Source of the DNA: a virus
Lineage: Duplodnaviria; Heunggongvirae; Uroviricota; Caudoviricetes
Length of the DNA stretch: 64,000 nt
IMG/VR virus record: IMGVR_UViG_3300037882_000610
Span: 17,576-81,575 of that record
Reading direction: 5' to 3' (one strand)
Of the stretch, positions 26,509 to 63,953 are shown piece by piece. A program made the position numbers and the translations under genes. The notes under the pieces were generated by a model. It searched no databases and was not told the DNA's origin. It was given only the letters and a program-made list of their open reading frames with translations. Position 1 is the stretch's first letter, and each line of letters starts with the position of its first letter.

Positions 26509-26513
26509 ACAAA

Positions 26514-28819: not shown

Positions 28820-29314
28820 CTACTTCGTCGGGTGCGGCGGCGAGACGGAAGGTGGCGGAGCGCCTATCAGCTGATCAATCAGGCGATTCCCATCCAACTT
28901 CACATCCAAGGTGCAGCTGTTGATCGCGGCAAGAATGATGGCGAGAAGCGCGGCGTACAGGCCTGTTCGAGAGTTTGCTCGCACCAGCTTGCCGAACTCC
29001 GGATCAATCTTCTCTACCGCTTTCGCGAGGGTTTCTGGGTCCGCGTGTCTGGCACCTGCCTCCCTGATTGCCGCCGCAAAAGCTTGAAGCATCTCTCTCG
29101 TGACGTTAGAAGCAGAGATGACGGTAGCCACTTGGTTCGCCACATTGAAGACGCCTTCGGCGGCGTACGCAAGTCCGCCGCAATGCGGGCATCGGTCCTC
29201 AACGTTCTTGATGGTGAGCCCCACGACGGTGATTCCGCCTCCGACGGAGATGGCCTGGGTAGGGAATATGGCGCCGCACACGGTGCAGGCGGCAGGAAGC
29301 GGTGTATTGCTCAT
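28820..29314 (-). CDS. hypothetical zinc-ribbon protein with C-terminal TM helix
   Basis: CTVCG...CPHCGG plus LYAALLAIILAAI; inside GC-rich island. Confidence 0.3.
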   Translation of the reverse strand: MSNTPLPAACTVCGAIFPTQAISVGGGITVVGLTIKNVEDRCPHCGGLAYAAEGVFNVANQVATVISASNVTREMLQAFAAAIREAGARHADPETLAKAVEKIDPEFGKLVRANSRTGLYAALLAIILAAINSCTLDVKLDGNRLIDQLIGAPPPSVSPPHPTK

Positions 29315-29340
29315 TTATCTCTCCCCTTAAAAATCAGACT

Positions 29341-29460
29341 AGGAGTCCAGCCATGAACACCAAGGATAAGGTTTTCCTGCACGGCATCTTCGCGCTCGGC
29401 GCTTTCGCGGGCGGCATCGGTACCTGCGGCGCCTTTCTTCTGCTTGCTTGGCTTCGCTGA
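29341..29460 (+). CDS. small hydrophobic peptide (39 aa), putative
   Basis: MNTKDKVFLHGIFALGAFAGGIGTCGAFLLLAWLR read from sequence; not in ORF track (<60 aa). Confidence 0.2.
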   Translation, partial: RSPAMNTKDKVFLHGIFALGAFAGGIGTCGAFLLLAWLR

Positions 29461-29492
29461 TTGCCACGCCCTGCCGGTAGCTGCGGGAATTC

Positions 29493-33344: not shown

Positions 33345-33545
33345 TCAGAGACTGTTCAGGTCTGTAACGTGAATGTCGCCATTGTACACGACAGGAAGAC
33401 TTCGGTGTTGCTTCTCAACCACAAAATCCATTGCTGTCAGGTCTTCGTCAATGTTCTTTGCGACGAAGGGCAAATTCTTAGAATTGAGAAAAGCCTTAGC
33501 TCGTGTACAAGCTGGGCAGTTGTTCTTTGTGTAGATTGTAATCAA
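33345..33545 (-). CDS. nrdH: glutaredoxin-like protein NrdH
   Basis: 66 aa, CPAC redox motif near N-terminus; adjacent to RNR genes. Confidence 0.7.
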   Translation of the reverse strand: MITIYTKNNCPACTRAKAFLNSKNLPFVAKNIDEDLTAMDFVVEKQHRSLPVVYNGDIHVTDLNSL

Positions 33546-34108
33546 GTTCCGTGCCTCTCTGTGTAGCCTGCACCTTGCAGGTTGAGTTGTTCAATCATTG
33601 CCTTCCTGTATTTCACAGCCGCCGCAAAGGCTGGTAGAAGCCCCAGCTTGGAAATCGAAAAGCATTTCTGAGATGGCAATCTTTTGGTTGGATTCTTCCA
33701 AAAGGCTGTCCAATAGTAGTTCCCACTTTTTCCGTTGCTTGTACACGACACGCCAGTCACACCGGATGAGTTTGTTACCTGCTTCTTCTTGTTACGGCAA
33801 TTCACCTCGAAAGGTATAACGCGAAGGTTAGTAATGCAGTTGTTGTGGGAGTCGCCGTCTATGTGATCTACAGTCCCATTAGGAAGGCCATGAAATAGCT
33901 TCCAGATTATGATGTGGATAGGATAATCGCACATCTCCAACATCACGTGGGCGTAGCGTTTTTTCTTTTTACTCCCCGCCACACTACCGGCTGGGAGACG
34001 GACGTAGCCAACGCCACGTCCGTTTATCACGTCATGTTTCCATCTCAAAAACGTGGGGCTAGTCTCGTCGTAGTAGAAATGAGCGTGCCAATCAATTTCA
34101 TCTTGCAT
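33542..34108 (-). CDS. HNH-AP2 homing endonuclease (paralog family 1 of 4)
   Basis: YYDETSPTFLRW...VDHIDGDSHNNCITNLR (HNH) plus SSGVTGVS...YWTAFW (AP2-like). Start moved to internal Met because the promoter -10 lies downstream of the ORF-track ATG. Confidence 0.65.
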   Translation of the reverse strand: MQDEIDWHAHFYYDETSPTFLRWKHDVINGRGVGYVRLPAGSVAGSKKKKRYAHVMLEMCDYPIHIIIWKLFHGLPNGTVDHIDGDSHNNCITNLRVIPFEVNCRNKKKQVTNSSGVTGVSCTSNGKSGNYYWTAFWKNPTKRLPSQKCFSISKLGLLPAFAAAVKYRKAMIEQLNLQGAGYTERHGT

Positions 34109-34125
34109 GATGCCTCCAAAGCGAG

Positions 34126-34154
34126 ATTGTAGCATGAAGTTCTCGCTTTGTCAA
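34126..34154 (-). promoter_or_regulatory. consensus sigma70-type promoter (- strand) TTGACA-N17-TACAAT driving HNH-nrdH
   Basis: -35 at 34154..34149, -10 at 34131..34126. Followed by GGAGG and ATG at 34108. Confidence 0.55.
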
Positions 34155-34168
34155 GATAGAGTATTAAC

Positions 34169-35917
34169 TCATTGGCACGACTCACAGATTTCCTCTTTAG
34201 ACGCTGTAACTCCTGCCTTGCTGTAGTAGTAGTAGATGCCGAGAATCAGAGGATTCAGAAAAGCCAAGGAAGTGATACGAGCGATTTCTGCTTCTGGAAC
34301 GTCACCAGCAAAGAATAGGTTCATACTTTGCCCTTGATCCAGATACCGTTGACGTGCTGCTGCAAGCTTCAGGATCGACTCTTGAGGAATCTCAAAAGCT
34401 GTTCGGAAGACACGCTTCTCCTCGTCTGTCAGCCAGTCTACACCTTGCACAGAGCCCTGAGCATCAGTGATTTCCTGCATGTGCTTCTTGTCGTACACAC
34501 CCCTCTCCTTCATCAACTCTAGAAAGATCGGATTAGCACGGTCAACTTCGCCAGCCGGGGTCAATTGCAGGAACGTCATAGCCACGTCAGGGTTGGCACC
34601 TTCAGAGATGCCAGCCATCAGCATAGCAGTGCTCTTGGTAGGAGCCTGAGCTGTCCTGTGCGTGTTGCGTAGGCCTGAGCCCTTGCACCACTCAGGTTCT
34701 CCAAAGACGCTTGCTAGCCACTTCGAAGCCTCAAGAGTGTCGTCATGCAGCGCCTTGTAGATTTCGTTGTTGAAGGCGTAAGCCTCGTAGCTGTCCCAGG
34801 CCCAGCGCTTCATCTGCAAGTAGGTGTGGAATCCTACCAGACCCAGGCCTAGAGGACGACCAAGCTCAGCAAACTTGACAGCCTTCTCCATACCAGGGAC
34901 ACCCTTAGCCTTACTGATGAAGTCTGCGTTGACGCAATCCAAGAACACATGGGCAATGAAGATTGCCCGGGTTCCCTTGATCTTGTCCCAACGTGAGGCA
35001 TTGATGCTCGACAGGACACAAGTGTACGTCAAGTCGTAGCTGCTGTGCAAGTGAATCTCATTGCAGAGCTGTGGAGCCACGACCATAAGGCCACGGTCTT
35101 TGTAGACCTGAGGACGACGCTCATTGATCTTGTCAATGAAAGCGAAGTAGCCCTTGCCAGTCACCATCTTCGTGAACAGCGCCTGCTTGTAGCGGGCCAC
35201 AGCATCTTCGTCTCCAGCCTTCAGGCGTTCGATGAACTCGTTGCTGATATTCCAGCCAACGTTCAAGCCGTCTGGACTGTCCTTCAGGTAGTTGCACAGC
35301 TCAAAGAAGTCCCCATGCTCGATAGGCAGATAGCCTGCCCAAGCACCACGACGGTTCGAGCCTTGGCTGACGACAGTCGTGTCAAGCACGAAGGTCTTAA
35401 TCCATTCAACTACGCCACCACTCACCACGCCCTTAGCACTTACAACACCACGTGCACTGATGTCCCCGAGATAAGAAGCAGTACCAAAGCCATTCTTGGT
35501 TAGCACAGCTACTTCCAGCTTGGCAGAGTAGATGCCGTAGACGCTGTTGTCGATTCGATTGCCAGAGCAAGAAACCGAAAATCCCCTGTCCGTCCCCGTG
35601 TTGGAGATGACAGGGGTAGAGCCCGACAGATTGCCGTTCCACATCTGGTCAAAGAATGCCTGAGCCCAGGTGTAGTCCTTGCCGAACTCAGCCTCCCACC
35701 AATCGGGGTAGTGGCCCTCAACGTACTGAGCCAACGTGTTTGCGATGCGGGAGTATTGCTCCTTAGGAGTCTGAGCATTGTAAAGGTACTTGCCCTTGAA
35801 CAATTGCCAAGCCCCTGTGCTCCACCAGTCTTGCATGTTGCCCGAGGCTTGGAGAGCCTTACGCTCCCGGCTCAGGCTGTCATAGATATTGTCACTCATT
35901 GTGCTTCGTAATTCCAA
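34169..35917 (-). CDS. nrdA: ribonucleotide reductase class I alpha subunit (no ATP cone)
   Basis: SNRRGAWAGYLPIEHGD, LCNEIHL, C-terminal CESCQ tail; 582 aa. Confidence 0.8.
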   Translation of the reverse strand: MELRSTMSDNIYDSLSRERKALQASGNMQDWWSTGAWQLFKGKYLYNAQTPKEQYSRIANTLAQYVEGHYPDWWEAEFGKDYTWAQAFFDQMWNGNLSGSTPVISNTGTDRGFSVSCSGNRIDNSVYGIYSAKLEVAVLTKNGFGTASYLGDISARGVVSAKGVVSGGVVEWIKTFVLDTTVVSQGSNRRGAWAGYLPIEHGDFFELCNYLKDSPDGLNVGWNISNEFIERLKAGDEDAVARYKQALFTKMVTGKGYFAFIDKINERRPQVYKDRGLMVVAPQLCNEIHLHSSYDLTYTCVLSSINASRWDKIKGTRAIFIAHVFLDCVNADFISKAKGVPGMEKAVKFAELGRPLGLGLVGFHTYLQMKRWAWDSYEAYAFNNEIYKALHDDTLEASKWLASVFGEPEWCKGSGLRNTHRTAQAPTKSTAMLMAGISEGANPDVAMTFLQLTPAGEVDRANPIFLELMKERGVYDKKHMQEITDAQGSVQGVDWLTDEEKRVFRTAFEIPQESILKLAAARQRYLDQGQSMNLFFAGDVPEAEIARITSLAFLNPLILGIYYYYSKAGVTASKEEICESCQ

Positions 35918-36462
35918 AGTTTTTCGTACACCCTTGGGTCCACGAGATGTTGATACTTAGAAGCTAGCTCTCTAGCTGTTGCTTCTTTGAACGTCTTGTA
36001 AGCCTGAAACGCCTCTTCTGGACTTGGATACGTCCCTATGTAGACCTTCTTTTCGGAACTGTCGTTGCAGAGTGCTTGAAATTTCTTACCGTTAGGCTTG
36101 ACTCCAACTGGCAAGCCTTTATCTCTGTAGTCCCTGAAGAATTTATTCAAGGCCTGAGGTATGAATACGCAAGTAGATGGAGAGTAAATCTTCACTCCAT
36201 CCCGGAGAGCATCCGCGTCAAGATGCCAGTCTAAGTTTTTGTACCCTATCTGCGTGACTGACCAATCTACAAAAGCCGGAAAATCTCGAAACTCGCATTC
36301 AGCATCCCTATAAGTCTCATAGCGTTTAGGGTTGAAACAACGAGTCTGCATGTTTTTCCAACGCCTGCCGCTAAGAGTCCTGTACAGCACTTTGTCAATA
36401 GAGAATGATTTAATCCATTCTCCTGCGCTGTTCTTCTGGTCAGCTACTAGCTCTTCGGCCAT
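35896..36462 (-). CDS. AP2-domain protein between nrdA and nrdB (possible degenerate homing endonuclease)
   Basis: C-terminal NGKKFQALCNDSSEKKVYIGTYPSPEEAFQAYK (AP2-like); no HNH/GIY motif seen. Confidence 0.35.
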   Translation of the reverse strand: MAEELVADQKNSAGEWIKSFSIDKVLYRTLSGRRWKNMQTRCFNPKRYETYRDAECEFRDFPAFVDWSVTQIGYKNLDWHLDADALRDGVKIYSPSTCVFIPQALNKFFRDYRDKGLPVGVKPNGKKFQALCNDSSEKKVYIGTYPSPEEAFQAYKTFKEATARELASKYQHLVDPRVYEKLWNYEAQ

Positions 36463-38402: not shown

Positions 38403-39253
38403 TACAGTCGCATCTCTTCCAGGATAGGCTTGCCGTCAATAATCAGGCCTGTGCCGATTACAGGTCGCTTGATGTTGACGTTGTTGTAGTTGAATGCCAA
38501 CGACTTGCGATCAATCAAACAGCCCGTATTCATGCCCCACAACAGCTTCGTCGGCGTGCTCCAGTATTGGATACCAAAACTCTCATGGTAATGGCCGCTA
38601 ACATGTGACATTCCCATAAGCTGAGCAGTACGCAATGCCTGAGGACTCTTGCCGTGGTGCACATAAACGTCTTGACCGTCTGGCAGCTTCAGAGTCAAAT
38701 CTGGATGCCAGACCCACCCTGAACCAACCTGGAGGACATCGTTGTAGCTCTTGATGTAAGCTCTTGAGATGCCGTGAGTCTTTGCCTTGCGCCACACCAG
38801 CGAGCCATGGTTAGACTCAATCAAATCCATCTGAGGAAACAAATCATGCATCTCAGCGATGACAGGCAAGCTCTTCTGAAGCTCTGTGCCAGCACTGTCG
38901 AGGTCTGGGTCGCTGTCGTGATAAGACAACGCATGCTTGTCAAGTTCGTCGCCTAGGTTGATAATCCGTGTCGGCTCATAACGTTGCTTGAGCAGGTACA
39001 GAAAGTCAATGAGGTTCGGATGATGGTAAGGGATGTGCTGGTCAGAGATGAACAGGATGCGAGAGTTGTCTACTTTTCTTGGTTCTGAGAATTTCGGGGC
39101 AGCCGGGCCATCCCAGATAGTCCCAGAGCTTTCTCTACTCCTGAGGTAGTCACTCACTGTACTCTTTGGTACTCCGATAATCCCGGCAATCTGACGCCAA
39201 GAACTCCCTGTGTCTGCTAGGGACGCGGCGCACTGCCGCTGAAAATCATTCAT
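38402..39253 (-). CDS. calcineurin-like metallophosphoesterase with N-terminal HTH
   Basis: SDQHIPYHH, NLGDELD, ESNHG, GHYHE phosphoesterase motifs; N-terminal GVPKSTVSDYLR helix-turn-helix. Confidence 0.6.
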   Translation of the reverse strand: MNDFQRQCAASLADTGSSWRQIAGIIGVPKSTVSDYLRSRESSGTIWDGPAAPKFSEPRKVDNSRILFISDQHIPYHHPNLIDFLYLLKQRYEPTRIINLGDELDKHALSYHDSDPDLDSAGTELQKSLPVIAEMHDLFPQMDLIESNHGSLVWRKAKTHGISRAYIKSYNDVLQVGSGWVWHPDLTLKLPDGQDVYVHHGKSPQALRTAQLMGMSHVSGHYHESFGIQYWSTPTKLLWGMNTGCLIDRKSLAFNYNNVNIKRPVIGTGLIIDGKPILEEMRL

Positions 39254-39797
39254 CAGACTCCTTCTTAAAAGTTTCTACCAACGCTGCTCGGCGTTTGGAG
39301 GCATTCGTCAGCAGGCGAGCATTATACCCGAGACCTACTAGGTAGTCAAGTTGCTGTTTCGTATTGTGAGACTTCACATACTCGATAGCTTTCTTTTCTG
39401 CCATAGCATCCTTGAAATCCAAACCTGTACGTTCCGCGTAGCTCTTCACCTTGTGACAAGGTTTGCAAGCCAGAACCCAGTTGTTGTTGCAGTCCAACAG
39501 ATTATACAGGAATTGATAGGCAGTCTCCCAAGAGTTACACTCCCCTGCTTGCTTGACGTGATCTACTTCTAGAGCTGATGCTGCAAAGCTCTGGGAGCAG
39601 TAGTGACACTTCCCTAGCTTCTTGGCACGTCCAGTGTACCCCTTGGGAGGGGTCACTAGCTGAGACTGCTTCCAAGAGAGCTTTGGAGGGTAGACAGCCC
39701 ATATACGCCGGATAGCCCCTCTAAGATACGTCCAGAACGCAGCAGAAGTTTTCCAGATTCCGGGGTACGCCACCCAAGGCTCAAGTCCTTTTGTCAA
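39246..39797 (-). CDS. HNH-like nuclease (putative)
   Basis: CHYC...EVDHV...CKPCH. Confidence 0.45.
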   Translation of the reverse strand: MTKGLEPWVAYPGIWKTSAAFWTYLRGAIRRIWAVYPPKLSWKQSQLVTPPKGYTGRAKKLGKCHYCSQSFAASALEVDHVKQAGECNSWETAYQFLYNLLDCNNNWVLACKPCHKVKSYAERTGLDFKDAMAEKKAIEYVKSHNTKQQLDYLVGLGYNARLLTNASKRRAALVETFKKESDE

Positions 39798-40356
39798 CAG
39801 CGCCTCCCCATTGGGCTGCCATGGCTTCTGCGATGCCCGCGAAAGTCCGGTCCCGGACTTTCCAACGATCAGGGCTAGGCGGAAGCTTATGAATCCTCTG
39901 TTCTCTCCCTTCCACTATGTTTGTAGGTACAAGCTTAGGAAGGTTCTTCAACCAAAGGCAAGTAGCTTTAGTCTCCCCGTGTCCAAACATCCAAGGTTGT
40001 ATAGTTTGATCCGGCTTACGCCACTTCGTGGACATGATACAGACTGGATTCTCGATAGCAATTCTCTCAATAGGGCTGTTCGCAAGCCTCGTGAAAAATT
40101 CAATTGCTGCCTGCTGTCTTCCATCTGCGATCTTTGCAGCAAAATGTCTTGCTCCGCTGACTGCTAGATGCGTACAGGGAGGGTGCGCAATCATCAAATC
40201 CCATCCTTGGTCAATGATGTCGAATACATCTCCTTTGTAGTGATAAGGACTTCCGTCCTCTGCATCTAACAAATCGCATGACCAGGCATCATGGCCCAGT
40301 TTTCGGAACGCCTCCCTCACACGCCCACTGTATTCACAGGCGACTAGAACGCGCAC
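39781..40356 (-). CDS. short protein with C5-cytosine-methyltransferase-like motif IV (PPCT..S..G)
   Basis: VLVACEYSG ... MIAHPPCTHLAVSGARH; only 191 aa, other MTase motifs not seen. Confidence 0.3.
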   Translation of the reverse strand: MRVLVACEYSGRVREAFRKLGHDAWSCDLLDAEDGSPYHYKGDVFDIIDQGWDLMIAHPPCTHLAVSGARHFAAKIADGRQQAAIEFFTRLANSPIERIAIENPVCIMSTKWRKPDQTIQPWMFGHGETKATCLWLKNLPKLVPTNIVEGREQRIHKLPPSPDRWKVRDRTFAGIAEAMAAQWGGAVDKRT

Positions 40357-40922
40357 GTTCCACCTTCCAAGTGCCTATCAGTGTAGCCTGCATATTGCTC
40401 GTTCAATTCTTTCATCTTTTCCTTTCGAAAATTCACAGCCGCTTGGAACGATTCTGTAGAGAGCCCCATGAAGTATTTGCTACCTCTGGTGCCATCTAGA
40501 TTGCTCCACTGAGCTACCCACCCCGAATAGACCTCACCTCGCTTGGTTCTGTGTTTCTGTGAGACTCCCGTTGTACCCGATACATTGTCGTGCCGCCGTA
40601 TCTTGTTTCTAGCGTTCAAGGTAGAGTCCACAAGACGGAGATTACCGATTTTGTTGTTCGACCTATCTCCGTCCTTGTGATCTAGCATCTTGCCAGCCGG
40701 TACGGAACCGTGATGCAATTCATAGACTACGATGTGAACATTGTAATCAACATCGAACAGACTGAGCCTGAAATAGCCGTCGTTCATTCGTCCTCCGGCT
40801 ACAGAATCCCTAGCATGTTCTAATTTGCACAGACCTTTGCCAGAGTAGCGGTCACAAGAAAATCTCAGATAAGTTGGGCTAGTCTCGTCGTAGTAGACGT
40901 GTTCTGACCAGTTAATATTCAA
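40344..40922 (-). CDS. HNH-AP2 homing endonuclease (paralog 2 of 4)
   Basis: VYYDETSPTYLRF...LDHKDGDRSNNKIGNLR...SGTTGVSQ...YSGWVAQW; TTG start. Confidence 0.7.
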   Translation of the reverse strand: MNINWSEHVYYDETSPTYLRFSCDRYSGKGLCKLEHARDSVAGGRMNDGYFRLSLFDVDYNVHIVVYELHHGSVPAGKMLDHKDGDRSNNKIGNLRLVDSTLNARNKIRRHDNVSGTTGVSQKHRTKRGEVYSGWVAQWSNLDGTRGSKYFMGLSTESFQAAVNFRKEKMKELNEQYAGYTDRHLEGGTCAF

Positions 40923-45131: not shown

Positions 45132-45460
45132 CAGAAGTCCGTGTAGTTGCCGGATTCGACAGCCTCGTACAGGTCATTCAAGTCCCTGAACAGAGCCACG
45201 CTCCTGTTGTTGCGGAAGTGGCCTTCCAAGGCGTTGCCTTCGGCATCAACGGGCACCATGTACGCTCCGATGGAGCCTCCATTGATGAGGAAGTTCAGTT
45301 CGAATCGCTTCTCACCGAGAACCAGAATGTCCCCTGGCCGTTCCAACTTCCGCACATCGGTGACGGTCTGGGCTTCCTTCAGCCAACGTTGGGCGTTCCT
45401 GTATCCTTCGCTCATCTCAACCTCCTTGAACTCGTGCACGAATGGTGGCGAAATTCTCAT
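45128..45460 (-). CDS. hypothetical protein (110 aa)
   Basis: ORF track. Confidence 0.35.
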   Translation of the reverse strand: MRISPPFVHEFKEVEMSEGYRNAQRWLKEAQTVTDVRKLERPGDILVLGEKRFELNFLINGGSIGAYMVPVDAEGNALEGHFRNNRSVALFRDLNDLYEAVESGNYTDFW

Positions 45461-47003
45461 TGATGAGAATCTTGCCGTCCTTGAAGACTGTCTGAAGCAG
45501 ACTGCTATCTTCTTCCTCAGGCGTCACTTGGTCACTCTGCTTCAGTGTGCCGTCAGCCCCCCTGTAGACGCAGATCAGACCACGGGCAGACTTCTTGGTG
45601 CCGTCATCCGTCTTCGGGTCTTTGAACAACTCCAGGCCCTTGCCATCGACAACAGCATACGTGGCCTTGATTGCCATGCCCAGCGTGTCACGGCTGACCA
45701 TCTGATACGTGTAGCTGCCCACACCGAACACGACATTGCTGGAGGCGAAGCCCTTCTCTTGCAAGCGACGGAAGATTTCGTCCGCACGCTCCAGAGTGAT
45801 GGAGTCACCGTAGATCAGGCCGATGCTCGGGTCCAGCAGCTTGTAGCCGTTGGCGTTGAGCGTACCACCGAACTCATCGTACAGCACTTGAATGCTGCCC
45901 TTCACTTCTTCTTCAGTGATCGGCTTGAGATGGAAGTCATGGATAGCCGGGGCGTTCCATTGCTCCTTGACAAAGATGCCTTGCGAGGATCGGACAATCT
46001 CATCCTCACGGTAGCCGCAGATGACTCGCACGGGGTCGCCAGAGTCGGGACGCACCACAACCTTGCCCGGCAGCACACCGAGAGCAGGACGTGCACGAAT
46101 CTCGTCCTTGAGAGCCGGCAGGTACTTGGTCAGCACTTGCCAGTAGTCGAGCGTATCGCTGACGACAGACACGATGCCAGCCGGGTAGTCCTTGGTGATC
46201 CAACGCTTGATGGTCTCCAGCTCGCCATCCACAGCGATGCCCAGAGAGGTCACGCTGTGCTCAGAGGCCGGGACAGACGCTGCAATGAACGTGCCTTGTG
46301 GTGAGCCACCGTAGAGCTGGTCGATGTAGTCGAGGGCAGCCACAGTGTCAGTGCCGCAGTGGCCTGCCAGCAAGTGGGCGAAGCCTGACATTGCAGCAGC
46401 GTGCCGACCGAACATGCCACGAGCAGAGAAGTCGTGGAACTGGAAAACCAAGTGATCCAGATTGGCACAAGTCTCCAGGCCGAAGCGCTTGCCCAGCAGG
46501 TAGAACTGGTAGGCGACAGTCGCGTTGGTGACGATAGGCCACACTTCTTGCGACAGCACAGTCTCCAGATATGTCACCAGCCATGCGAAGCGGGGGTCCG
46601 TGTTCGTGACGGTCAGGAATGCCACCTTCAGGGGCACCTTGGAGCCCTCAGGCAAGGCCTTCAGCTCGATAGGCAGGTAGCCCAGCTTGTGCAGCTCTTG
46701 GAAGTGCTCCATGCTGACGGAGCCAGCGCCCAGGTAGCCTTCGACACGGGCCTTCCACTCGGCAATCACGGTCTTGAACGGACGCTTGAAGAAAGTGTCG
46801 TTCCACTCACCAATCAGGACATTCTTGATGAATGCCTGAACACCCGCCACGATGACGAGATGTTCACCCGGACCCCACTTGGCGTACTTGCCAGAGCGGG
46901 CCGTGAAGTTGGCGTAGATTTGCGTGGTGCCGTCAGCCATGAACTTCTTGTGGCTCAGCTTGTAGGCGTCGGTCTGGGCGGTTGCAACGGGGGTGTAACT
47001 CAT
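45417..47003 (-). CDS. nicotinamide phosphoribosyltransferase-family enzyme (NadV/Namat-like)
   Basis: 528 aa, NAMPT-type fold signatures (DAYKLSH, FGRHAAAMSGFAH, SVPASEHSV, GDSITLERA). Confidence 0.75.
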   Translation of the reverse strand: MSYTPVATAQTDAYKLSHKKFMADGTTQIYANFTARSGKYAKWGPGEHLVIVAGVQAFIKNVLIGEWNDTFFKRPFKTVIAEWKARVEGYLGAGSVSMEHFQELHKLGYLPIELKALPEGSKVPLKVAFLTVTNTDPRFAWLVTYLETVLSQEVWPIVTNATVAYQFYLLGKRFGLETCANLDHLVFQFHDFSARGMFGRHAAAMSGFAHLLAGHCGTDTVAALDYIDQLYGGSPQGTFIAASVPASEHSVTSLGIAVDGELETIKRWITKDYPAGIVSVVSDTLDYWQVLTKYLPALKDEIRARPALGVLPGKVVVRPDSGDPVRVICGYREDEIVRSSQGIFVKEQWNAPAIHDFHLKPITEEEVKGSIQVLYDEFGGTLNANGYKLLDPSIGLIYGDSITLERADEIFRRLQEKGFASSNVVFGVGSYTYQMVSRDTLGMAIKATYAVVDGKGLELFKDPKTDDGTKKSARGLICVYRGADGTLKQSDQVTPEEEDSSLLQTVFKDGKILINENFATIRARVQGG

Positions 47004-47012
47004 GTTCTCTCC

Positions 47013-47852
47013 TTAGATTTGTTCCACGTACTGGCTGAATTGCTTCTTAGCCTCTGGACGCAGATTGTACACGAAGATGCGATCAAACAGATCATTCAGC
47101 TCCACGAATTTTTCGGGATTGGTGAACATCCCGTGTGTCACGTACAAGCACAACTCAGCCGGCTCGAACTCGCGTGCAACCCTGCCCAGCTCAAGGAAGG
47201 TAGCTCCACCATCGCAGAGGTCGTCCACGATGCAGACAGTCTTGCCAGTCAGCCTGCCACCATAGGGCAGCACTGTCTTGGTGATCTTGCCTTCAGGGCT
47301 GCGGACCTTCGATGCACAGATGACTTCCGTTCCCAAGGCCACTTGATTGTGCTTGAAGATTTTCTTCTCAGCACCAGCGTCAGGAGCCAGCAGCACGTCG
47401 AACTTGGGCAGCTCCCTTGCACACTTTTCTTGCGGATAGGGAGCCAAGCGATCCAGCAACGCCTCCAGCACAGTCGAGTGGGCGTCATCAACGCACACGT
47501 ACTTGAAGTTGAGCTGGTTGATGAATTGGCAGGCAATCTTGAGGGCGTGACCTTCTCCCAGATTCGCACGACGGTCCTGCCGTGCATACGGGAAGTAGGG
47601 AATCCAAGCTGAGATTGCCACGTCGAGGTTGACAGCGCGGATAGCGTCCACTAGCTGTGCTAGAGCGAACAGGTCGTCGTTGCTTGAGAACTCAACCTTG
47701 ATTCCCACTTCAGTCAGCTTGGGGCTGGCGAGATTGGCGAGGATTTCGGTTGTGAGCTGCACGCCCACTTCTCCGCAAGGGAACTTCCACACCTTGGGAT
47801 CGTAGAACTCGGCTGCATCGTTTGTGAAGCCCTTGAATGCGATCTTCAGCAT
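47013..47852 (-). CDS. ribose-phosphate pyrophosphokinase-family enzyme (Prs/Adps-like)
   Basis: PYFPYARQDRR flag region and PRPP-binding loop CIVDDLCDGGATF. Start at internal MLKIAFKG with GGAG. Confidence 0.7.
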   Translation of the reverse strand: MLKIAFKGFTNDAAEFYDPKVWKFPCGEVGVQLTTEILANLASPKLTEVGIKVEFSSNDDLFALAQLVDAIRAVNLDVAISAWIPYFPYARQDRRANLGEGHALKIACQFINQLNFKYVCVDDAHSTVLEALLDRLAPYPQEKCARELPKFDVLLAPDAGAEKKIFKHNQVALGTEVICASKVRSPEGKITKTVLPYGGRLTGKTVCIVDDLCDGGATFLELGRVAREFEPAELCLYVTHGMFTNPEKFVELNDLFDRIFVYNLRPEAKKQFSQYVEQI

Positions 47853-48190
47853 TTGCGAATCTCCACGTCGCCAGAGCCGACTTTGCCGACCCAGATGAAT
47901 TGGACTTCGCCCAGCTCGGAACGAATCTCGAATGTCGTCGTCCACTCACCTTCGTGGTAGGACGTGGCAGCGTAGCCGCCTGTGATGCGGGTGTTGAGCA
48001 CGCTGGTCAGGTCGCCAGTGACTTCAACCAAGCGACTGTGGCCTGAGCTGCTGTCAATGATGACATCAGGGCTGAGAGCATCCTTCGTGTTCAGGACAAC
48101 GAAGTCCCGATTCACGTCATCTCCCATCTCCACGCTCATGCCTTCGATTTCAACGCCAGCTACCCAGTAGCCAAAGTCATTGTAGTTCAC
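47846..48190 (-). CDS. hypothetical protein (114 aa)
   Basis: ORF track. Confidence 0.35.
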   Translation of the reverse strand: MNYNDFGYWVAGVEIEGMSVEMGDDVNRDFVVLNTKDALSPDVIIDSSSGHSRLVEVTGDLTSVLNTRITGGYAATSYHEGEWTTTFEIRSELGEVQFIWVGKVGSGDVEIRKC

Positions 48191-57634: not shown

Positions 57635-58435
57635 TTACTTCCCCGTGTTGACGATGCCCTTGAAGTCGTAAGGCACGACTACGGCATGAACCTTGCCTTC
57701 CTTCACGCCTTGAGCGATCAGGTTGAGCGACTGGGCGTTCATGTACTCGATGTTCTGCTTGTTCGAGCTGAGCAGCGTCTGACGTTCAGCTTCCTTCGCA
57801 GCAGTCTGCACTTCCACAGCCTTCTGCTTCAGCTCGTTCTCGGCGTTCACCAAGTCATTGGCGCTCTTCAAGATGCTGGCTGCCGGCAGGGCATTCGTCA
57901 CTTGCACTTGGCTGATGACGATGCTCTTCTCCAAGCCACGGCTCTGAAGGGCTTCTTCGATGCCACTCTTGATCTTCGCTTCGATCACAGAGCGATTGTC
58001 GCCAATCACCAGTGACTTGTGCTCACGCACGGCCTTGGTAGAGGCATTGCGCAGCAGCGTCGAGATGTAGCCGTTCATCAGCAGCACCTGACCGTGGCTG
58101 TCGATTGCATGGAAGCTGCGGCTCTCCTTCGTCCACAGCTCAGCGACAGCAGCCGGGTTGAGGGAGTAGATGACCTGAGCGTCGAAGTCAGCCAGGGCCG
58201 AGTTGTCCGCAGCTTGCGGGTGCAAGTCGCTGACGACAGCAGCCACTTCCTGCACCTTGAAGGTGACAACATCACCAATCAGGGTCTGGTTGAGCGTGCC
58301 CGGTTGCAGCTCCTGCATGTTGAACGTCTTGTCGAAGTTGCGACGCAAGCCGACTTCGCCCGTTTCGATACGGGTACAGCCGACAGCAGCGACACACATC
58401 AGTGCGAGGGCGAGGGAACGGAAGATGCTCTTCAT
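57635..58435 (-). CDS. SPFH/band-7 family lipoprotein
   Basis: Internal start MKSIFRSLALALMCVAAVGC (lipobox) preceded by AAGGAGAAACCC. The 80-aa His/Arg-rich N-terminal extension of the ORF-track call looks non-coding. Confidence 0.5.
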   Translation of the reverse strand: MKSIFRSLALALMCVAAVGCTRIETGEVGLRRNFDKTFNMQELQPGTLNQTLIGDVVTFKVQEVAAVVSDLHPQAADNSALADFDAQVIYSLNPAAVAELWTKESRSFHAIDSHGQVLLMNGYISTLLRNASTKAVREHKSLVIGDNRSVIEAKIKSGIEEALQSRGLEKSIVISQVQVTNALPAASILKSANDLVNAENELKQKAVEVQTAAKEAERQTLLSSNKQNIEYMNAQSLNLIAQGVKEGKVHAVVVPYDFKGIVNTGK

Positions 58436-58458
58436 TGGGTTTCTCCTTGAATTGTGCG

Positions 58459-58635
58459 TTAGAACGCGATGACGATGAAAACTGTGCAGAGGGCTGCGAA
58501 GATGGTGACGCCTGTCGTGACCATAACGGCCCGTCCGAGCTTCAACTTCTCCTTCAGCGTGGTTGCTGACCAGACGTAGTATACGCCGAAAACCAGCAGC
58601 CACACAAGAAAGAAGCCAAAAAGATTTCTCAACAT
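58459..58635 (-). CDS. small two-TM membrane protein (58 aa), alternative frame upstream of SPFH gene
   Basis: MLRNLFGFFLVWLLVFGVYYVW...AVMVTTGVTIFAALCTVFIVIAF read in a frame overlapping the long ORF's N-terminal extension. Confidence 0.25.
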   Translation of the reverse strand: MLRNLFGFFLVWLLVFGVYYVWSATTLKEKLKLGRAVMVTTGVTIFAALCTVFIVIAF

Positions 58636-58640
58636 TGAGA

Positions 58641-59177
58641 TTAAGCCTTTCCATGCCTATTGGTGTAGCCAGCACCTTGGGCGTTAAGTTGTAAAATTTG
58701 TTCCTCCCGCCACTGGCAGGCTAGGTGGAACGCAGCGTCTCCGTATGTGCCCACAGAGTATGACTTGTACCTTCTTTTACCATCCAGAGTCTTGATGCCG
58801 GCTTGCCAACTATCAGACTTTGAATGGTAGTTCACTCCACAGACACCCGATGTGTTTCTGAAGTTCATCTTGGTATTTCTATTGTTTACAGCTAGCGGAA
58901 TCGCTCTCAGATTACTTCTAAAGTTGTTCCGCCAATTCCCGTCTTCATGATCTACGATGTACCCTTCCGGGACTTCCCCGTTGAACATTTCGTAGATGAT
59001 CTTGTGCACAGGATGCTGAACGCCTCTCAGCTTGATTCTATAGCATCTAGAGCCGACACTACCTGCAACAGCATCCTTCTGTACGAGCAAAACACTATCT
59101 TGAAAGCCAGTCCAAACATTTATTGCCCATCTCAGGCACGTTGGGCTACTTTCATCGTAGTAAAACTCAGACCACAT
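58641..59177 (-). CDS. HNH-AP2 homing endonuclease (paralog 3 of 4)
   Basis: FYYDESSPTCLRW...VDHEDGNWRNNFRSNLR...SGVCGVN...SWQAGI. Confidence 0.7.
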   Translation of the reverse strand: MWSEFYYDESSPTCLRWAINVWTGFQDSVLLVQKDAVAGSVGSRCYRIKLRGVQHPVHKIIYEMFNGEVPEGYIVDHEDGNWRNNFRSNLRAIPLAVNNRNTKMNFRNTSGVCGVNYHSKSDSWQAGIKTLDGKRRYKSYSVGTYGDAAFHLACQWREEQILQLNAQGAGYTNRHGKA

Positions 59178-60249
59178 CCAGCAAAAATCCAGGCTTGTTT
59201 TCTCCTGGGATCAACTTTCTGTGCATCGCCCAACCTCGGAATTGGGCACTCCACAACTGACCTTCACGATCTACATGCGAGACACCTTCTTGCCACGTAG
59301 CTGGGTTGAAAGGCTCGTTGACTCCAACTCTTGATTCTTCGAGGGCTGTAGCCTGATGCTGGAACGCAGAGCCGTGAATGCGCAAGTCACTCGTCAGCTT
59401 GGCGAACACTTCAGTGGACTTTTCCACATCATAGTCCACGTTGCGGAATGACACAGCAGCGCACCGAGCAGAGCTGACCTTAATTGCTTCGTCAAGCGTC
59501 AGCTCACGGATACCACGGTCGTCCTTCTCGTCTTCGATGAAGTACACAGTCTCGCCCGGGTAACGGTCGCGGATAGTGTACGACTGAACGTAAGGCAAGT
59601 GCCACTCCCCCGGCAACAGCTCCACAGGTGTGCTCACCTTCGCAGCTTCGTGCATGCAACGTGCCAGCTCATGCAGGGACGGGTCCGCAGCTCCATGATC
59701 CCGCAGCCAGAAGAGGTTCGCCCACTCGGTAGCTGAGAGGACAGTCTTCATCATCTGGAACGATTCAGTGACGCGGTTGTATACCTGCTTGTGGTAGCCG
59801 GATTCGAAGAACATCTGAGAGATGCCCGACATGATCCACTGAGCGAAATCCCACCACACTTCAGGCGTTGTCCAGAAGCCGTAGGCGTCCTCATCCCACG
59901 TGCAGTGATGCGTTGTCGGTGGACGGTAGCGCACAAGCCATGTCTGGAATGCGTTCTGCAATTCCCTGTGCACAAACACGGGAGCTGCATAGTCCTCGCC
60001 CTTGTCCTGCATGCCGGCTTGATTGGCTCCGAAGCGAATCGGCCGGCCTGTCAAGTTCTCTTGCATCTTGGCGAACGGGATAGCCCGGCTGCTGGAGCTG
60101 TTCTTGCAGACCATGCCGTGCGTGTTCAGCTCTGCCAGGATGATGCGAGGGTAGCTCACCTCGAACGTTAGCAGGTTGACGCCAGCAGGGCTGATGCTGT
60201 GCTTCAGGACACGGGCGTAGACCCCGTACTTGCCACGGACTTCGATCAT
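59167..60249 (-). CDS. ThyX-fold (flavin-dependent thymidylate synthase-like) protein with non-canonical active-site motif and C-terminal extension
   Basis: FEVSYPRIILAELNTHGMVCKNSSSSRAIPF aligns with ThyX FEh..F.......RHR..S....S.RY (RHR replaced by THG, first Ser by Cys). Later SATEWANLFWLRDH...LHELARCMHEAAK matches the ThyX W.H...LR region. 360 aa versus about 220 for ThyX. Confidence 0.45.
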   Translation of the reverse strand: MIEVRGKYGVYARVLKHSISPAGVNLLTFEVSYPRIILAELNTHGMVCKNSSSSRAIPFAKMQENLTGRPIRFGANQAGMQDKGEDYAAPVFVHRELQNAFQTWLVRYRPPTTHHCTWDEDAYGFWTTPEVWWDFAQWIMSGISQMFFESGYHKQVYNRVTESFQMMKTVLSATEWANLFWLRDHGAADPSLHELARCMHEAAKVSTPVELLPGEWHLPYVQSYTIRDRYPGETVYFIEDEKDDRGIRELTLDEAIKVSSARCAAVSFRNVDYDVEKSTEVFAKLTSDLRIHGSAFQHQATALEESRVGVNEPFNPATWQEGVSHVDREGQLWSAQFRGWAMHRKLIPGENKPGFLLDVV

Positions 60250-60782
60250 TCCTTCACCTCGATTCCAGCAGCCTTGAGCGTGGACAGAACTTCAGCTTCG
60301 GGAATCAACGTCAGCTTGTGCTCAGGTTGCTTCTCGGAGATGCTTCCCATCACGCCAGCACTGTAGCCAGTCATGCCGTAGCTGCCATCCGTACAGTCGT
60401 AAGTGCTGCCCGAAGAGTTGTGAAACAGGAAGCCGCCTTCACGCAGTTCGACGCTCTGGATTTTAGAGCTGAGCTTCCCTGCAGCCCCGTAGAGGTAGCT
60501 GCCAGACCACGAAGCCAGTACGCGATAGGCTGTCTCAGCCTTCTCGGTGCCTACGTGGTATTCGATCTTGTAGAGTGACCAGAGGTCAGGTGTAGTTGCC
60601 ATTCCAGCCTTTGTCAGGTTCGCTCCAGGCGATTCGATAGCCCAGGCAGGAACGCAATCGAACCCACTGCGACGCATGTGCTGAGTCATCTCCTTTACCG
60701 GCCTGCCCAGGATAGTGCTGTAGAGCAGCAGGAAGGCCCTGACGGCTTGGTTCTCTCCGTCCGTGTCCATGAGTTCTTTCAC
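60246..60782 (-). CDS. hypothetical protein (178 aa)
   Basis: ORF track. Confidence 0.35.
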   Translation of the reverse strand: MKELMDTDGENQAVRAFLLLYSTILGRPVKEMTQHMRRSGFDCVPAWAIESPGANLTKAGMATTPDLWSLYKIEYHVGTEKAETAYRVLASWSGSYLYGAAGKLSSKIQSVELREGGFLFHNSSGSTYDCTDGSYGMTGYSAGVMGSISEKQPEHKLTLIPEAEVLSTLKAAGIEVKE

Positions 60783-62431: not shown

Positions 62432-63424
62432 TTAGTCGCTCATATCCTCTTCAGCCCTCAAACACAGCCAAGTAGGCATGCGCAACTTGTCCTTCTGCCC
62501 ATGGGGCATGAACTTGGCCTTGCCAATCTCGCCCATGATGTAGTCTTCTGATTCTGTGTCATCCGCAGCAAAAGCCTGCCACGCAGCAATTCGTTGCTCG
62601 TGGGGCATGCAGCCAGCTCCAACAACAATCTCTTGTCCCTTCTGAATGACAACCTTGCCACGGTACTCCACATCAGCCAGGGCTTCCAAAAGGATGTTGC
62701 CCACCATGCCCTTGGGGATCATGTTCTCTTGGTGCGTGGAGCGTTCAGTCCGTCCAAGCTCATTCGTCTTGGCTTCGTTCTGGTTCTCCATGGCTTCAGT
62801 CATGCCCACGACCTTACCTTCGAAGTCAATGAATCGCTTGATACGCAGGTAGGCCCCGAGCTTGGTTGTAGCACGACCACTCTTATGCAGGCCATTAGGG
62901 TCACGCACAATGACACCTTCGAAGCCAGCATCCAAGCACTCATCTTCAAATGCGTACAGCTCTTCCAGCGTGTGGACAAGCTTCCATGGGACAAGACGAA
63001 CACGAGTGTCCTCCTCTCCATCGTACCAATTCAGATGAGCTGTTTTAAGAGCTGTTAGTCGGTCAATGTACGGCTTGTCGATGACTGTCGGGTGCAAGAA
63101 GTCGAAGGCGTACCAAAAGAAGTCATCACTCTTCGTGGGCTTACCATCTCGTGCAGTCTTTCGGTTGACAAAACCTGTAGTCTCGCGGCACAGGCCTGGG
63201 CGATTCCAATCCCCTAGGACGAGTTCTCCGTCCACTCCTCGGAAGCATTCGCTACTGAAGCACTCTGCAACAAACTTGTTCTTGAAAGCCTTCAGGCTGC
63301 GGCCCGTGATGTCACCCTTCAGGTTGATCCCTCGCACGCCGTCTATCTTTACTTGGACTATCACGGGGAACTTGAGCTTGCTTTCATCAAGATCGCAAGC
63401 GAGGTGTGGTCGAATTTCATCCAT
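62432..63424 (-). CDS. ATP-dependent DNA ligase
   Basis: Motif I VKIDGVRG (KxDGxR), adenylation-domain signatures. Start at internal MDEIRPHL. Confidence 0.65.
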   Translation of the reverse strand: MDEIRPHLACDLDESKLKFPVIVQVKIDGVRGINLKGDITGRSLKAFKNKFVAECFSSECFRGVDGELVLGDWNRPGLCRETTGFVNRKTARDGKPTKSDDFFWYAFDFLHPTVIDKPYIDRLTALKTAHLNWYDGEEDTRVRLVPWKLVHTLEELYAFEDECLDAGFEGVIVRDPNGLHKSGRATTKLGAYLRIKRFIDFEGKVVGMTEAMENQNEAKTNELGRTERSTHQENMIPKGMVGNILLEALADVEYRGKVVIQKGQEIVVGAGCMPHEQRIAAWQAFAADDTESEDYIMGEIGKAKFMPHGQKDKLRMPTWLCLRAEEDMSD

Positions 63425-63953
63425 TGTTACTAAACTCCTTATGTAGTTGTGAGCGAGCTTCCTCCACTGCGACCTTAGCATCCTCCAGTCGTTCGTAGTA
63501 GCCCAATGAGATTCTCTGATTGTCAACTTGTATTCGCGCAGACCATTTGCCAGATTTCTGGTGCCAATTGACACCCTTAACACCCGAAGAATTATCCTGC
63601 CGAAGAGGATGGTTCTGACTGTTGCCGGCCCGAGTCGCAAGCCTTAGATTATGTATCCTATTGTTGGCCCTGTCTAAGTCCTCATGGTCAATGAAGTGAC
63701 TCGGCCACTCTCTGTAGTGTAGCAGCCATGCCACACGATGGGCAAGATAGGGTACAGTATCGTACTCAAGAGTGATGTAACCCTTGTTGTGCTTGCTCCC
63801 CGCTACCATGCCAGCCTTGACTCTCTTGCTTCTATCTTCCTTCCATGTCAGCAAGCCAGTCTCTGCATTGTAATCTAGAACTGCTGCAAGTTGCTTGTAT
63901 GTGTGTGGCTCTCTTACGGAGCCTAGCGTTTTATCCATCTTCCTCCAAAACAT
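63417..63953 (-). CDS. HNH-AP2 homing endonuclease (paralog 4 of 4)
   Basis: HFIDHEDLDRANNRIHNLR (HNH) + SSGVKGVNWHQKSGKWSARI (AP2). Confidence 0.7.
   Translation of the reverse strand: MFWRKMDKTLGSVREPHTYKQLAAVLDYNAETGLLTWKEDRSKRVKAGMVAGSKHNKGYITLEYDTVPYLAHRVAWLLHYREWPSHFIDHEDLDRANNRIHNLRLATRAGNSQNHPLRQDNSSGVKGVNWHQKSGKWSARIQVDNQRISLGYYERLEDAKVAVEEARSQLHKEFSNNG

Follow-up and report, generated by a model that had tools for sequence, protein, structure and literature searches.

A gene in the replication arm of a tailed phage codes for a divergent ThyX homologue from a large clade in which the segment order of the chain differs from that of canonical ThyX. Profile alignments show that the putative equivalents of the ThyX N-terminal helices are encoded after the core, at residues ~252-299, and are missing from the stretch that joins the first strands to the core. 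Since the protein is a divergent member of a ThyX clade with its front segment moved back, it most likely still serves dTMP synthesis, and we consider it probable that this rearranged homologue functions as a flavin-dependent thymidylate synthase within the replication arm. The gene lies in a 64,000-nucleotide stretch of phage DNA, referred to here as the window (positions 17,576 to 81,575 of IMG/VR record IMGVR_UViG_3300037882_000610).

The gene and its neighborhood

The open reading frame exists as it was first described, and the two genes that overlap its ends lie on the same strand.

59167..60249 (-): permuted-clade ThyX homologue, whole coding sequence, 360 aa plus stop
60246..60782 (-): upstream 178-aa ORF, its stop overlapping the ATG start of the ThyX-like gene (ATGA), read from the sequence
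58641..59177 (-): downstream HNH endonuclease gene (phrog_99, E=4e-35)

An SD-like GAGGTGAAGGA precedes the ATG of the ThyX-like gene. The upstream ORF has no PHROG or Pfam match and is not kept in relatives, where other small ORFs occupy that place (the L001 and L002 contexts). The start of the HNH endonuclease gene overlaps the final 11 nt of the ThyX-like coding sequence, and no HNH gene stands at the equivalent place in the same two relatives. Besides the HNH endonuclease, the immediate neighbors are genes for a Band_7 protein, a primase/helicase, a cell-wall hydrolase and a ligase. The minus-strand arm of the window carries ligase, primase/helicase, helicase, DNA polymerase I, dNMP kinase, HD dNMP phosphatase and RNR genes, and comparison with syntenic relatives of the THG and the THR type puts the ThyX-like gene in the ligase to primase/helicase to DNA polymerase part of this arm. 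The preliminary description had set the gene within a nucleotide-metabolism module. The RNR, dNMP kinase and HD phosphatase genes are on the same strand but 14-25 kb distant.

Searches of the window, which is 64 kb of an 81.6-kb contig, detected neither ThyA, DHFR (FolA), Dut or canonical ThyX nor a dCMP-deaminase motif; the E. coli queries used for these thymidylate genes were unverified sequences, while the T. maritima (Tm) ThyX query was verified. Additionally, megablast of 4 kb against the phage collection returned no match, and no hypermodification genes were recognized near it.

Layout of the protein

The reference for canonical ThyX (FDTS) was PF02511 Thy1, TIGR02170 and T. maritima TM0449 (PDB 1O26/1KQ4). 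PolB, the UMP/dUMP C5-methylase of polyoxin biosynthesis (PDB 4P5A), also counts among the closest known systems. The ThyX fold is common to the canonical enzyme and the window protein, as the preliminary description had supposed and as the HMM and hhalign alignments support. Canonical ThyX is collinear, running from beta1-beta2 through alpha1-alpha3 with S30 and H53 to the core, whereas in the clade ThyX 21-61 comes after ThyX 62-209. The window protein further adds a conserved tail of ~60 aa and an insertion of ~43 aa. Its segments are as follows.

60181..60249 (-): aa 1-23, N-terminal beta-strands (3-5, 11-19) running straight into the core strand (model secondary structure)
59989..60180 (-): aa 24-87, core part 1, equivalent to Tm ThyX ~59-95 (beta3, alpha4, active-site loop; hhalign)
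59860..59988 (-): aa 88-130, variable insertion, helix 95-108 plus beta-hairpin (alignment, model)
59620..59859 (-): aa 131-210, core part 2, equivalent to Tm ~114-209 (relatives' HMM alignment to the canonical ThyX profile, invariant columns)
59497..59619 (-): aa 211-251, linker of three beta-strands with invariant G214-E-W-H217-L-P219-Y220 (model secondary structure, invariant columns)
59353..59496 (-): aa 252-299, relocated ThyX alpha1-alpha3 segment, equivalent to Tm 21-59 (hhalign, permuted constructs, native relatives)
59170..59352 (-): aa 300-360, conserved clade-specific tail with W319, H325, W333-S334, R344-K345 and G349-E-N351 (invariant columns)

The helices that follow the N-terminal strands in canonical ThyX are absent after residues 1-23, and the Pfam and ThyX-HMM matches of the relatives start only at profile positions ~52-62. 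The insertion is gapped in most homologue rows, so that only some clade members carry it; pLDDT is 87-94 across most of its length. In core part 2, T174 corresponds to Tm R165, N178 to Tm N169, and W181-L182-R183 to Tm N172-L173-R174, the last of these being the LR helix that had been recognized earlier. Pairing by eye suggests that R159 may correspond to Tm R147. The relatives' Pfam Thy1 match stops at profile position 190/191, at the end of core part 2, and nothing in the linker could be matched to ThyX positions 1-20. The equivalents in the relocated segment are R262 for Tm R25, S267 for Tm S30, H292 for Tm H53, S294 for Tm T55 (Mtb S71) and H298 for Tm H59. In the tail, pLDDT falls below 50 over residues 347-358. 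Across the protein, 78 columns are invariant among 33 sequences (50-68% identity), and these cover every retained flavin, folate and uracil-contact equivalent in both the core and the relocated segment.

Evidence for the swapped order of segments

Window residues 258-298 align to Tm 21-59 by hhalign with a score of 28.6, and this match abuts the local match of the core. Permuted constructs gained 7-11 bits against Pfam Thy1, their match growing from profile positions 52-190 to 12-190, and the HMM alignment was continuous across the junction with core part 1. The window protein, which has no native Thy1 match, reached 15.8 bits once permuted. Control constructs (shuffle, reverse and other-tail) scored 1.2-1.6 bits versus 11.9, and the permuted construct beat the best shuffle in 30 of 33 cases. 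Furthermore, native relatives give two significant matches to the canonical ThyX HMM in swapped order, abutting between HMM positions 61 and 62; such pairs came from Saccharimonadaceae, Mycoplasmatales, other CPR and JG004 proteins in their native form. Taken alone, C-terminal fragments had no Thy1 match in Pfam, a segment of that length being insufficient to score.

The preliminary description had noted a C-terminal extension of 140 aa. Its reading as an added domain is not supported, since the region after residue ~210 (~150 aa) contains the relocated alpha1-alpha3 with the S30, H53 and T55 equivalents. We also observed that placing the strands of aa 1-20 or aa 215-251 before the relocated helices gave no gain in score, which bears on whether the arrangement is a true circular permutation or a relocation of the helices alone. 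A permuted ThyX was not found in the literature searched, where the statements stayed at the level of annotation.

A degenerate and variable signature motif

The canonical ThyX motif is RHRX7S (as cited in PMC2826268). In the window protein it reads T-H-G-x7-S, with two of the four specified positions kept, and as proposed earlier the wider RHR...S signature is degenerate and reads T-H-G...C.

60076..60132 (-): aa 40-58, degenerate ThyX motif E-L-N-T43-H44-G45-M-V-C48-K-N50-S-S-S53-S-R55-A56-I-P (alignments, 120-homologue counts)

Alignment of window residues 20-55 to Tm ThyX 55-90 by hhalign, weak when taken alone (score 15.3, E 0.35), gives exactly the register proposed from inspection and pairs T43 with R78, H44 with H79, G45 with R80, C48 with S83, S53 with S88 and R55 with R90. 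T43, H44, S53, R55 and A56 are identical in 120 of 120 homologues, as are R159, R183, R262, H292, H298, R344 and K345. In the same set, position 45 is Arg in 44, Gly in 43 and Lys in 19, with other residues in the remainder, and position 48 is Ser in 60, Cys in 28, Val in 14, Ala in 11, Pro in 5 and Asn in 2. Residue 45 changed at least 19 times on the tree and residue 48 at least 26 times.

The replacement of the motif is real; T43 is clade-wide and not peculiar to the window protein, and positions 45 and 48 are variable. With 57 of the 120 lacking a basic residue at 45 and 60 lacking Ser at 48, the change is a variable trait and does not define the clade. Because both positions vary freely, Gly45 and Cys48 are best regarded as tolerated substitutions and not as a new catalytic device. 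Their repeated flips among close syntenic relatives likewise mean that they define no functional subclass. The suggestion that the gained Cys serves as a catalytic residue is not borne out, as C48 gives way to S, V, A, P or N in other homologues, and the lability of the site led us to reject a new nucleophile there.

Of all columns in the 120 homologues, only 335 and 336 discriminate basic from non-basic residues at 45. The association at the tips is strong, and only three changes share a branch of the NJ tree; for this reason we treat the covariation as a hint, and not as proof, that the tail may contact the motif.

Distribution and context of the clade

The window protein belongs to phrog_85 (E=1.2e-71). 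The clade comprises 1,033 phage records, mostly annotated as thymidylate synthase, with identity to the window protein of at most 41%, and 998 of them cover at least 80% of the query. Its phage types include N4 gp30, rV5, ICP1 and Pakpunavirus. There are 1,720 metagenomic homologues, the nearest at 68% identity, and a CPR-type query retrieved more than 7,800 relatives on contigs of up to 0.88 Mb.

The cultured phrog_85 members (N4 gp30-like, rV5 gp102, JG004 gp130, ICP1 gp193, EE36phi1 gp27 and CcrKarma gp117), which carry names such as putative or FAD-dependent thymidylate synthase, share with the window protein the rearranged architecture, the T-H-x...N-x-x-S-S-R-A motif, the relocated segment S-x-x-C-A-x-x-S...H-x-S-x-F/L-E/Q-H and the tail. 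Similarly, their genes lie in replication or nucleotide-metabolism modules. They differ in that Arg45 is present in 5 of 5 examined and Ser48 in 4 of 5 (Gly in EE36phi1), where the window protein has Gly and Cys; its 88-130 insertion also sets it apart. ThyX-annotated proteins from Saccharimonadia/Patescibacteria and a Mycoplasmatales MAG have the permuted order and a T-H-R motif. These cellular proteins are ~270-345 aa long and ~30% identical to the window protein, and they keep R45 and S48. The N-terminal signature P-R...E-x-x-T-H...N-x-x-S-S-R-A is found in the window protein, the cultured-phage members and the cellular members, and so is the C-terminal signature S-x-x-x-x-x-x-S, H-x-S-x-F/L/Y-E/Q-H, with R-K/Q near the C-terminus.

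The gathering score of Pfam PF02511 is 24.8 and the equivalog cut-off of NCBIfam TIGR02170 is 87.9. The window protein has no match to Pfam or NCBIfam even at E<=10, while relatives pass Pfam Thy1 at 30-61 bits (45-61 for the Saccharimonadia and Mycoplasmatales proteins). All clade members tested against TIGR02170 fall below its cut-off (16-59 bits). Among PDB sequences, neither phmmer with the protein nor hmmsearch with the homologue-alignment profile retrieved a ThyX.

The position of the ThyX-like gene is kept across diverged relatives, and relatives of either motif type, THG or THR, share synteny with the window. Phage neighbors of the clade gene are dCMP deaminase (EE36phi1), dNMP kinase (Karma) and RNR (rV5, JG004). 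The cellular genes are chromosomal and lie among housekeeping genes, in the order tmk-holB-rsmI-[permuted ThyX type]-hpt-hpt-rsmG-purA on a Mycoplasmatales chromosome and just downstream of secA, with murG ~2 kb beyond, in Saccharimonadaceae.

Function of the ThyX-like protein

In canonical ThyX, Ser30 binds flavin C4=O, His53 stacks with flavin/folate and Thr55 binds the FAD phosphate; R78 contacts dUMP and stabilizes FADH-, R165 binds the FAD phosphate, and Y91 forms a lid whose Y91F mutant oxidizes flavin ~1000-fold more slowly (PMC11940539, PMC6514825). The window protein retains equivalents of S30, H53, T55, N85, S88, R90, N169 and R174, and its R35 corresponds to the dUMP-binding Arg eight residues ahead of the motif in Mtb and Hp ThyX. 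At 10-16% identity to canonical ThyX, it differs by R78 to T, R80 to G, S83 to C, Y91 to A and R165 to T. R78, R165 and Y91 are replaced clade-wide (T43, T174 and A56), which implies that binding of the flavin phosphate and stabilization at N1/C2=O would be handled by other residues. The invariant clade-specific basic residues K61, R72, K154 and R344-K345 are possible candidates for such compensation.

Based on these correspondences, the window protein is predicted to bind flavin, with active sites assembled across subunits as in ThyX and the relocated helices in their predicted place. It would convert dUMP to dTMP with methylene-tetrahydrofolate and NAD(P)H, as the canonical enzyme does in the form of an FAD-binding homotetramer with shared active sites, and this thymidylate would feed the phage's own replication machinery, encoded around the gene. 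The gene contexts in phages and on cellular chromosomes lend this activity circumstantial support. A published activity assay of any clade member was not found in the literature searched, which offered statements of annotation only.

Another reading is that the protein is a flavin-dependent enzyme modifying pyrimidines at C5 with an altered substrate or product, for instance acting on UMP or dCMP in place of dUMP, or releasing a non-reduced product, such as a 5-hydroxymethyl one, for use in phage DNA modification. We consider this reading unlikely. The same architecture and motif type occur on cellular chromosomes near thymidylate kinase (a Mycoplasmatales chromosome) and beside secA (Saccharimonadaceae), and the phage pairing with dCMP deaminase, dNMP kinase or RNR is that of the classical dTMP route. 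The flips at positions 45 and 48, the synteny of THG and THR types, the invariance of the uracil-contact equivalents S53, R55 and R183, and the lack of recognized hypermodification genes near the gene also argue against repurposing for another nucleotide, which the preliminary description had raised. To our knowledge, modified thymidine has not been reported for N4, rV5 or ICP1.

Slightly less probable still is that the clade, having lost R78, R165 and Y91, uses a flavin-binding mode or chemistry different from that of ThyX. The difference could lie in the form of the flavin, in the reductant, or in release of a product that is not reduced (C5-methylene or hydroxymethyl), and the Gly45 lineage, with the window protein, would then be the most derived form.

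We give somewhat less credence again to an inactive ThyX-fold pseudoenzyme with a role in binding nucleotide or flavin, or in scaffolding or regulating a replication or dNTP-synthesis complex. The failure of the window protein in both curated ThyX models, the absence of R78, R80, S83, Y91 and R165, and the mere two RHRX7S positions left are in keeping with such a protein. Against it, the 78 invariant columns include all retained contact equivalents, and this invariance is the pattern predicted by a working active site. Furthermore, searches of the window turned up no second thymidylate synthase, and the position of the gene is maintained across diverged relatives.

Finally, a sequencing or frameshift error hiding a canonical RHR, as the preliminary description had allowed, or a fusion of two genes, is extremely improbable and is refuted by the homologue alignments: the T43-H44-G45 codons (acg-cac-ggc, 60123-60115) are read in frame between conserved flanking stretches, T43 is found in 120 and G45 in 43 of 120 homologues from independent assemblies, and full-length collinear homologues of 290-370 aa occur in the 1,033 phage records and in thousands of metagenomic proteins.

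Significance

ThyX is an antibiotic target and the textbook second, flavin-based route to thymidylate, and its mechanism was worked out on collinear enzymes of the RHR type. The gene in the window is an ordinary, though divergent, member of its clade, and in this respect the result is mostly deflationary. The clade itself is very large and is called ThyX by annotation transfer alone; it spans over 1,000 sequenced phages, including some that serve as models or are relevant to therapy (such as N4, rV5-like phages, ICP1 and Pakpunavirus), as well as Saccharimonadia and some Mycoplasmatales. If its members are active, the ThyX active site can cope with a rearranged chain and without the first RHR arginine, and the curated models should be extended to the permuted clade. 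If they are inactive, thousands of annotations would be wrong, together with phage 'AMG' inventories and reconstructions of CPR nucleotide metabolism. Were the variant chemistry true, production of thymidylate or a modified pyrimidine in many lytic phages and CPR bacteria would follow an uncharacterized variant mechanism.

Results

The ThyX-like gene (59167..60249, minus strand) was called as an ORF of 360 aa, and its ATG, preceded by the SD-like GAGGTGAAGGA, shares an ATGA with the stop of the ORF upstream. Pfam and NCBIfam scans of the protein returned zero matches, even at E<=10, and phrog_85 'thymidylate synthase' was matched at E=1.2e-71. Homologues were found by tblastn in 1,033 phage records at identities of 41% or less; these are rV5-like, Pakpunavirus, ICP1, N4-like and phiCbK-like, and for most of them the annotation reads putative or FAD-dependent thymidylate synthase. 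A metagenome protein search returned 1,720 homologues, the nearest at 68% identity.

When the alignment of the clade (permuted T-H-x ThyX homologues from phages, CPR bacteria and Mycoplasmatales) was compared with a canonical ThyX alignment in hhalign, the top local match was the C-terminal segment and not the RHR region. Residues 258-298 of the window protein (VSSARCAAVSFRN...HGSAFQH) pair with residues 21-59 of T. maritima ThyX (Tm; LSAVRAARVSFD...HGHETPFEH), and this match and the RHR-region match adjoin on the ThyX sequence with their order reversed in the window protein. We built permuted constructs, in which aa 215-299 were moved ahead of aa 24-214, and scored them with Pfam Thy1. The score rose in every case: from 45.1 to 52.2, 33.0 to 43.8, 32.7 to 41.1 and 30.8 to 40.9 bits for the relatives P0102, P0051, P0114 and P0075, respectively, and from no match to 15.8 bits for the window protein. 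In the four relatives the single Thy1 match also lengthened, from profile positions ~52-190 to 12-190.

A control HMM built solely from Thermotogae ThyX was used to score 33 proteins. Permuted constructs averaged 11.9 bits vs 1.4 for the core alone, and the control constructs averaged 1.6 (shuffled segment), 1.2 (reversed segment) and 1.2 (other 48-aa tail). The permuted construct exceeded the best of 10 shuffles in 30/33 proteins, and HMM 21-91 aligned without a break. The swap was also evident in native proteins: the Saccharimonadaceae protein matched HMM 62-209 at aa 20-170 and HMM 21-61 at aa 198-241 (16.3 bits, E=6e-6 for each), and two separately significant swapped matches were found in the Mycoplasmatales protein, 5/8 other CPR proteins and the JG004 protein. 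Together, the hhalign pairing, permuted constructs and native swapped matches indicate that the C-terminal extension contains relocated ThyX N-terminal helices. Judged by sequence, the whole chain may be circularly permuted, or the helices alone may have moved. No account of a permuted ThyX turned up in the literature searched.

The in-frame motif of the window protein reads E40-L-N-T43-H44-G45-M-V-C48-K-N50-S-S-S53-S-R55-A56. With Tm numbering based on a sequence 100% identical to PDB 1KQ4, hhalign pairs window 20-55 with Tm 55-90 (T43=R78, H44=H79, G45=R80, C48=S83, N50=N85, S53=S88, R55=R90, A56=Y91), the exact register in which the preliminary description had reported a THG...C motif. Among the 120 closest homologues, T43, H44, S53, R55 and A56 never vary. 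At position 45, 44 carry R, 43 G, 19 K and 14 some other residue; at position 48 the counts are 60 S, 28 C, 14 V, 11 A, 5 P and 2 N. G45 and C48 occur together in 18/120, and Cys48 is also found alongside R or K at position 45. On an NJ tree, at least 19 switches between a basic and a non-basic residue were counted at position 45, and at least 26 changes at position 48. All five cultured phages compared (rV5, JG004, ICP1, EE36phi1 and Karma) carry T-H-R. Because T43 is invariant, positions 45 and 48 are variable and the cultured phages are T-H-R, loss of the first Arg is a character of the clade, not special to the window protein, and Gly45 and Cys48 are tolerated variation at labile sites. 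Cys48 was also considered as a conserved new catalytic residue and rejected for its lability.

Across the 120 homologues, columns 335 (G vs A) and 336 (N vs Q), both in the C-terminal tail, are the only ones that tell proteins with a basic residue 45 from those with a non-basic one; of the tips, 60 are basic/G, 44 are non-basic/A and 16 are mixed. Such tracking hints that the tail may pack near or contact the motif loop, or else reflects shared ancestry, the phylogenetic control being weak. The codons lie at:

60115-60117, minus strand: residue 45
59242-59247, minus strand: residues 335-336

In canonical ThyX, Tm H53, kept in place by N85 and Y91, stacks on flavin or folate, Tm S30 and S88 hydrogen bond the flavin C4=O, and Tm R78 stabilizes FADH- at N1/C2=O (PMC11940539). 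The FAD phosphates and ribityl are bound by the RHR motif, whose first Arg touches the isoalloxazine and dUMP as well; dUMP is liganded by the Arg 8 residues before the motif (R87 of M. tuberculosis ThyX, Mtb), S105, R107 and R199 and covered by Tyr108, while Mtb S71 and R190 also bind the FAD phosphate (PMC6514825).

Table. Canonical ThyX residues (role), window counterparts and status.
Tm S30 (H-bond, flavin C4=O); S267; kept 119/120; relocated segment
Tm H53 (stacks flavin/folate); H292; kept, invariant; relocated segment
Tm T55 / Mtb S71 (FAD phosphate); S294; kept, invariant; relocated segment
Tm H59; H298; kept, invariant; relocated segment
Mtb R87, -8 from RHR (dUMP); R35; kept, invariant
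Tm N85 (holds H53); N50; kept, invariant
Tm S88 (H-bond flavin C4=O; dUMP); S53; kept, invariant
Tm R90 (dUMP); R55; kept, invariant
Tm R174 (dUMP); R183; kept, invariant
Tm R147 (dUMP phosphate); R159; kept; pairing by eye
Tm R78 (FADH- stabilization; dUMP); T43; lost clade-wide
Tm R165 / Mtb R190 (FAD phosphate); T174; lost clade-wide
Tm Y91 (lid; H53 partner); A56; lost clade-wide

The ThyX active site is largely kept in the clade. Flavin-phosphate binding and N1 stabilization would have to be done differently, and the invariant clade-specific basic residues K61, R72, K154 and R344-K345 are candidate substitutes.

The gene sits within a long minus-strand arm that encodes an ATP-dependent ligase, a Hydrolase_2 cell-wall hydrolase, a Band_7 protein, a primase/helicase, a second helicase, DNA polymerase I, PRPP synthetase, NAMPT, an HD dNMP phosphatase, a dNMP kinase, an exonuclease and the RNR alpha and beta subunits. 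RNR and the kinase share the arm but lie 14-25 kb off and are not adjacent. The order ligase...Hydrolase_2...ThyX-like...primase/helicase...DNA polymerase is common to the relatives P0003 (THG/C-type) and P0102 (THR/S-type). ThyA, DHFR, canonical ThyX, dUTPase and a dCMP-deaminase motif were not detected in the window, a soft negative, as the E. coli query sequences were unverified. Further features are:

33542-34135, minus strand: HNH homing endonuclease
35896-36462, minus strand: HNH homing endonuclease
39246-39797, minus strand: HNH homing endonuclease
39781-40356, minus strand: 191-aa protein, phrog_757 'DNA methyltransferase' (E=6.5e-74)
40344-40922, minus strand: HNH homing endonuclease
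45417-47945, minus strand: nicotinamide phosphoribosyltransferase (528 aa, phrog_448, E=1e-180) adjoining ribose-phosphate pyrophosphokinase (310 aa)
57635-58675, minus strand: SPFH/Band_7 protein, PHROGs 'lipoprotein'
58641-59177, minus strand: HNH homing endonuclease
63417-63953, minus strand: HNH homing endonuclease
26514-28763, plus strand: ORF >700 aa
26622-28781, minus strand: ORF >700 aa

At least six HNH genes are dispersed along the replication/nucleotide arm, one between the RNR subunit genes and two flanking the methyltransferase-like gene. The start of another overlaps the last 11 nt of the ThyX-like CDS; its absence from that spot in 2/2 relatives examined suggests a recent insertion. 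Adenine methyltransferase genes lie within a few kb of the ThyX-like genes in rV5 and ICP1. The SPFH/Band_7 gene is kept in the replication module of relatives (L001, 11223-12020; L002, 19489-20280), and the adjoining NAMPT and pyrophosphokinase genes are a phage NAD+ salvage pair. The two long ORFs overlap almost completely on opposite strands within 26000-30000 (GC 0.59 vs ~0.52 elsewhere), probably a compositionally biased, repeat-rich structural gene.

Clade genes of cultured phages, listed as thyX in papers purely by annotation, neighbour dCMP deaminase (EE36phi1), a dNMP kinase (Karma) or RNR (rV5, JG004). Directly 3' of the gene in Pseudomonas phage JG004, a 114-aa ORF (PJG4_131, L004 3945-4289) is also annotated 'thymidylate synthase'; this looks doubtful, with no likeness to ThyX or the window protein by eye. 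The permuted T-H-R type is also chromosomal in reduced cellular genomes. In a Mycoplasmatales MAG (OZ244030.1, 85203-91958; 538-kb chromosome) the order is tmk-holB-rsmI-[thyX-like, code 4]-hpt-hpt-rsmG-purA, and in a Saccharimonadaceae MAG (JAVBQO010000003.1) the gene lies directly 3' of secA, with murG ~2 kb further on. A CPR protein query found >7,800 relatives, and the contigs that carry them reach 0.88 Mb in some cases.

Discussion

The preliminary description was largely right in its observation of a ThyX fold with a degenerate motif, but the data do not support reading the protein as a repurposed enzyme that gained a Cys and an extra C-terminal domain. In contrast to canonical ThyX, the window protein falls below the curated HMM cut-offs, keeps 2/4 positions of RHRX7S and has swapped segments in place of the collinear order. 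Because of these differences we do not call it canonical ThyX; it is a member of the permuted T-H-x clade, a ThyX-like variant clade of the superfamily. All clade members tested scored below the TIGR02170 equivalog cut-off (16-59 bits vs 87.9), and T. maritima ThyX scored 227.

We consider that the window protein, as a member of the permuted clade, is probably a functional flavin-dependent thymidylate synthase. It would supply dTMP for phage replication, with Gly45 and Cys48 as neutral or compensated substitutions. Of the circumstantial arguments for dTMP synthesis by the clade, the one that weighs most is its retention in reduced cellular genomes, near thymidylate kinase. An altered substrate or product, the repurposing first proposed from the motif, is unlikely given the labile positions 45 and 48 and the cellular copies near tmk. 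A pseudoenzyme could be read into the loss of R78, R165 and Y91; we regard it as improbable, with the counterparts of the dUMP ligands (R35, S53, R55 and R183) invariant. An artefact can be dismissed, the motif being in frame and T43 and G45 recurring in homologues.

The novelty lies at the level of the clade, which spans many well-known phages and CPR bacteria: neither its swapped segments nor its lack of R78, R165 and Y91 appears to have been described.
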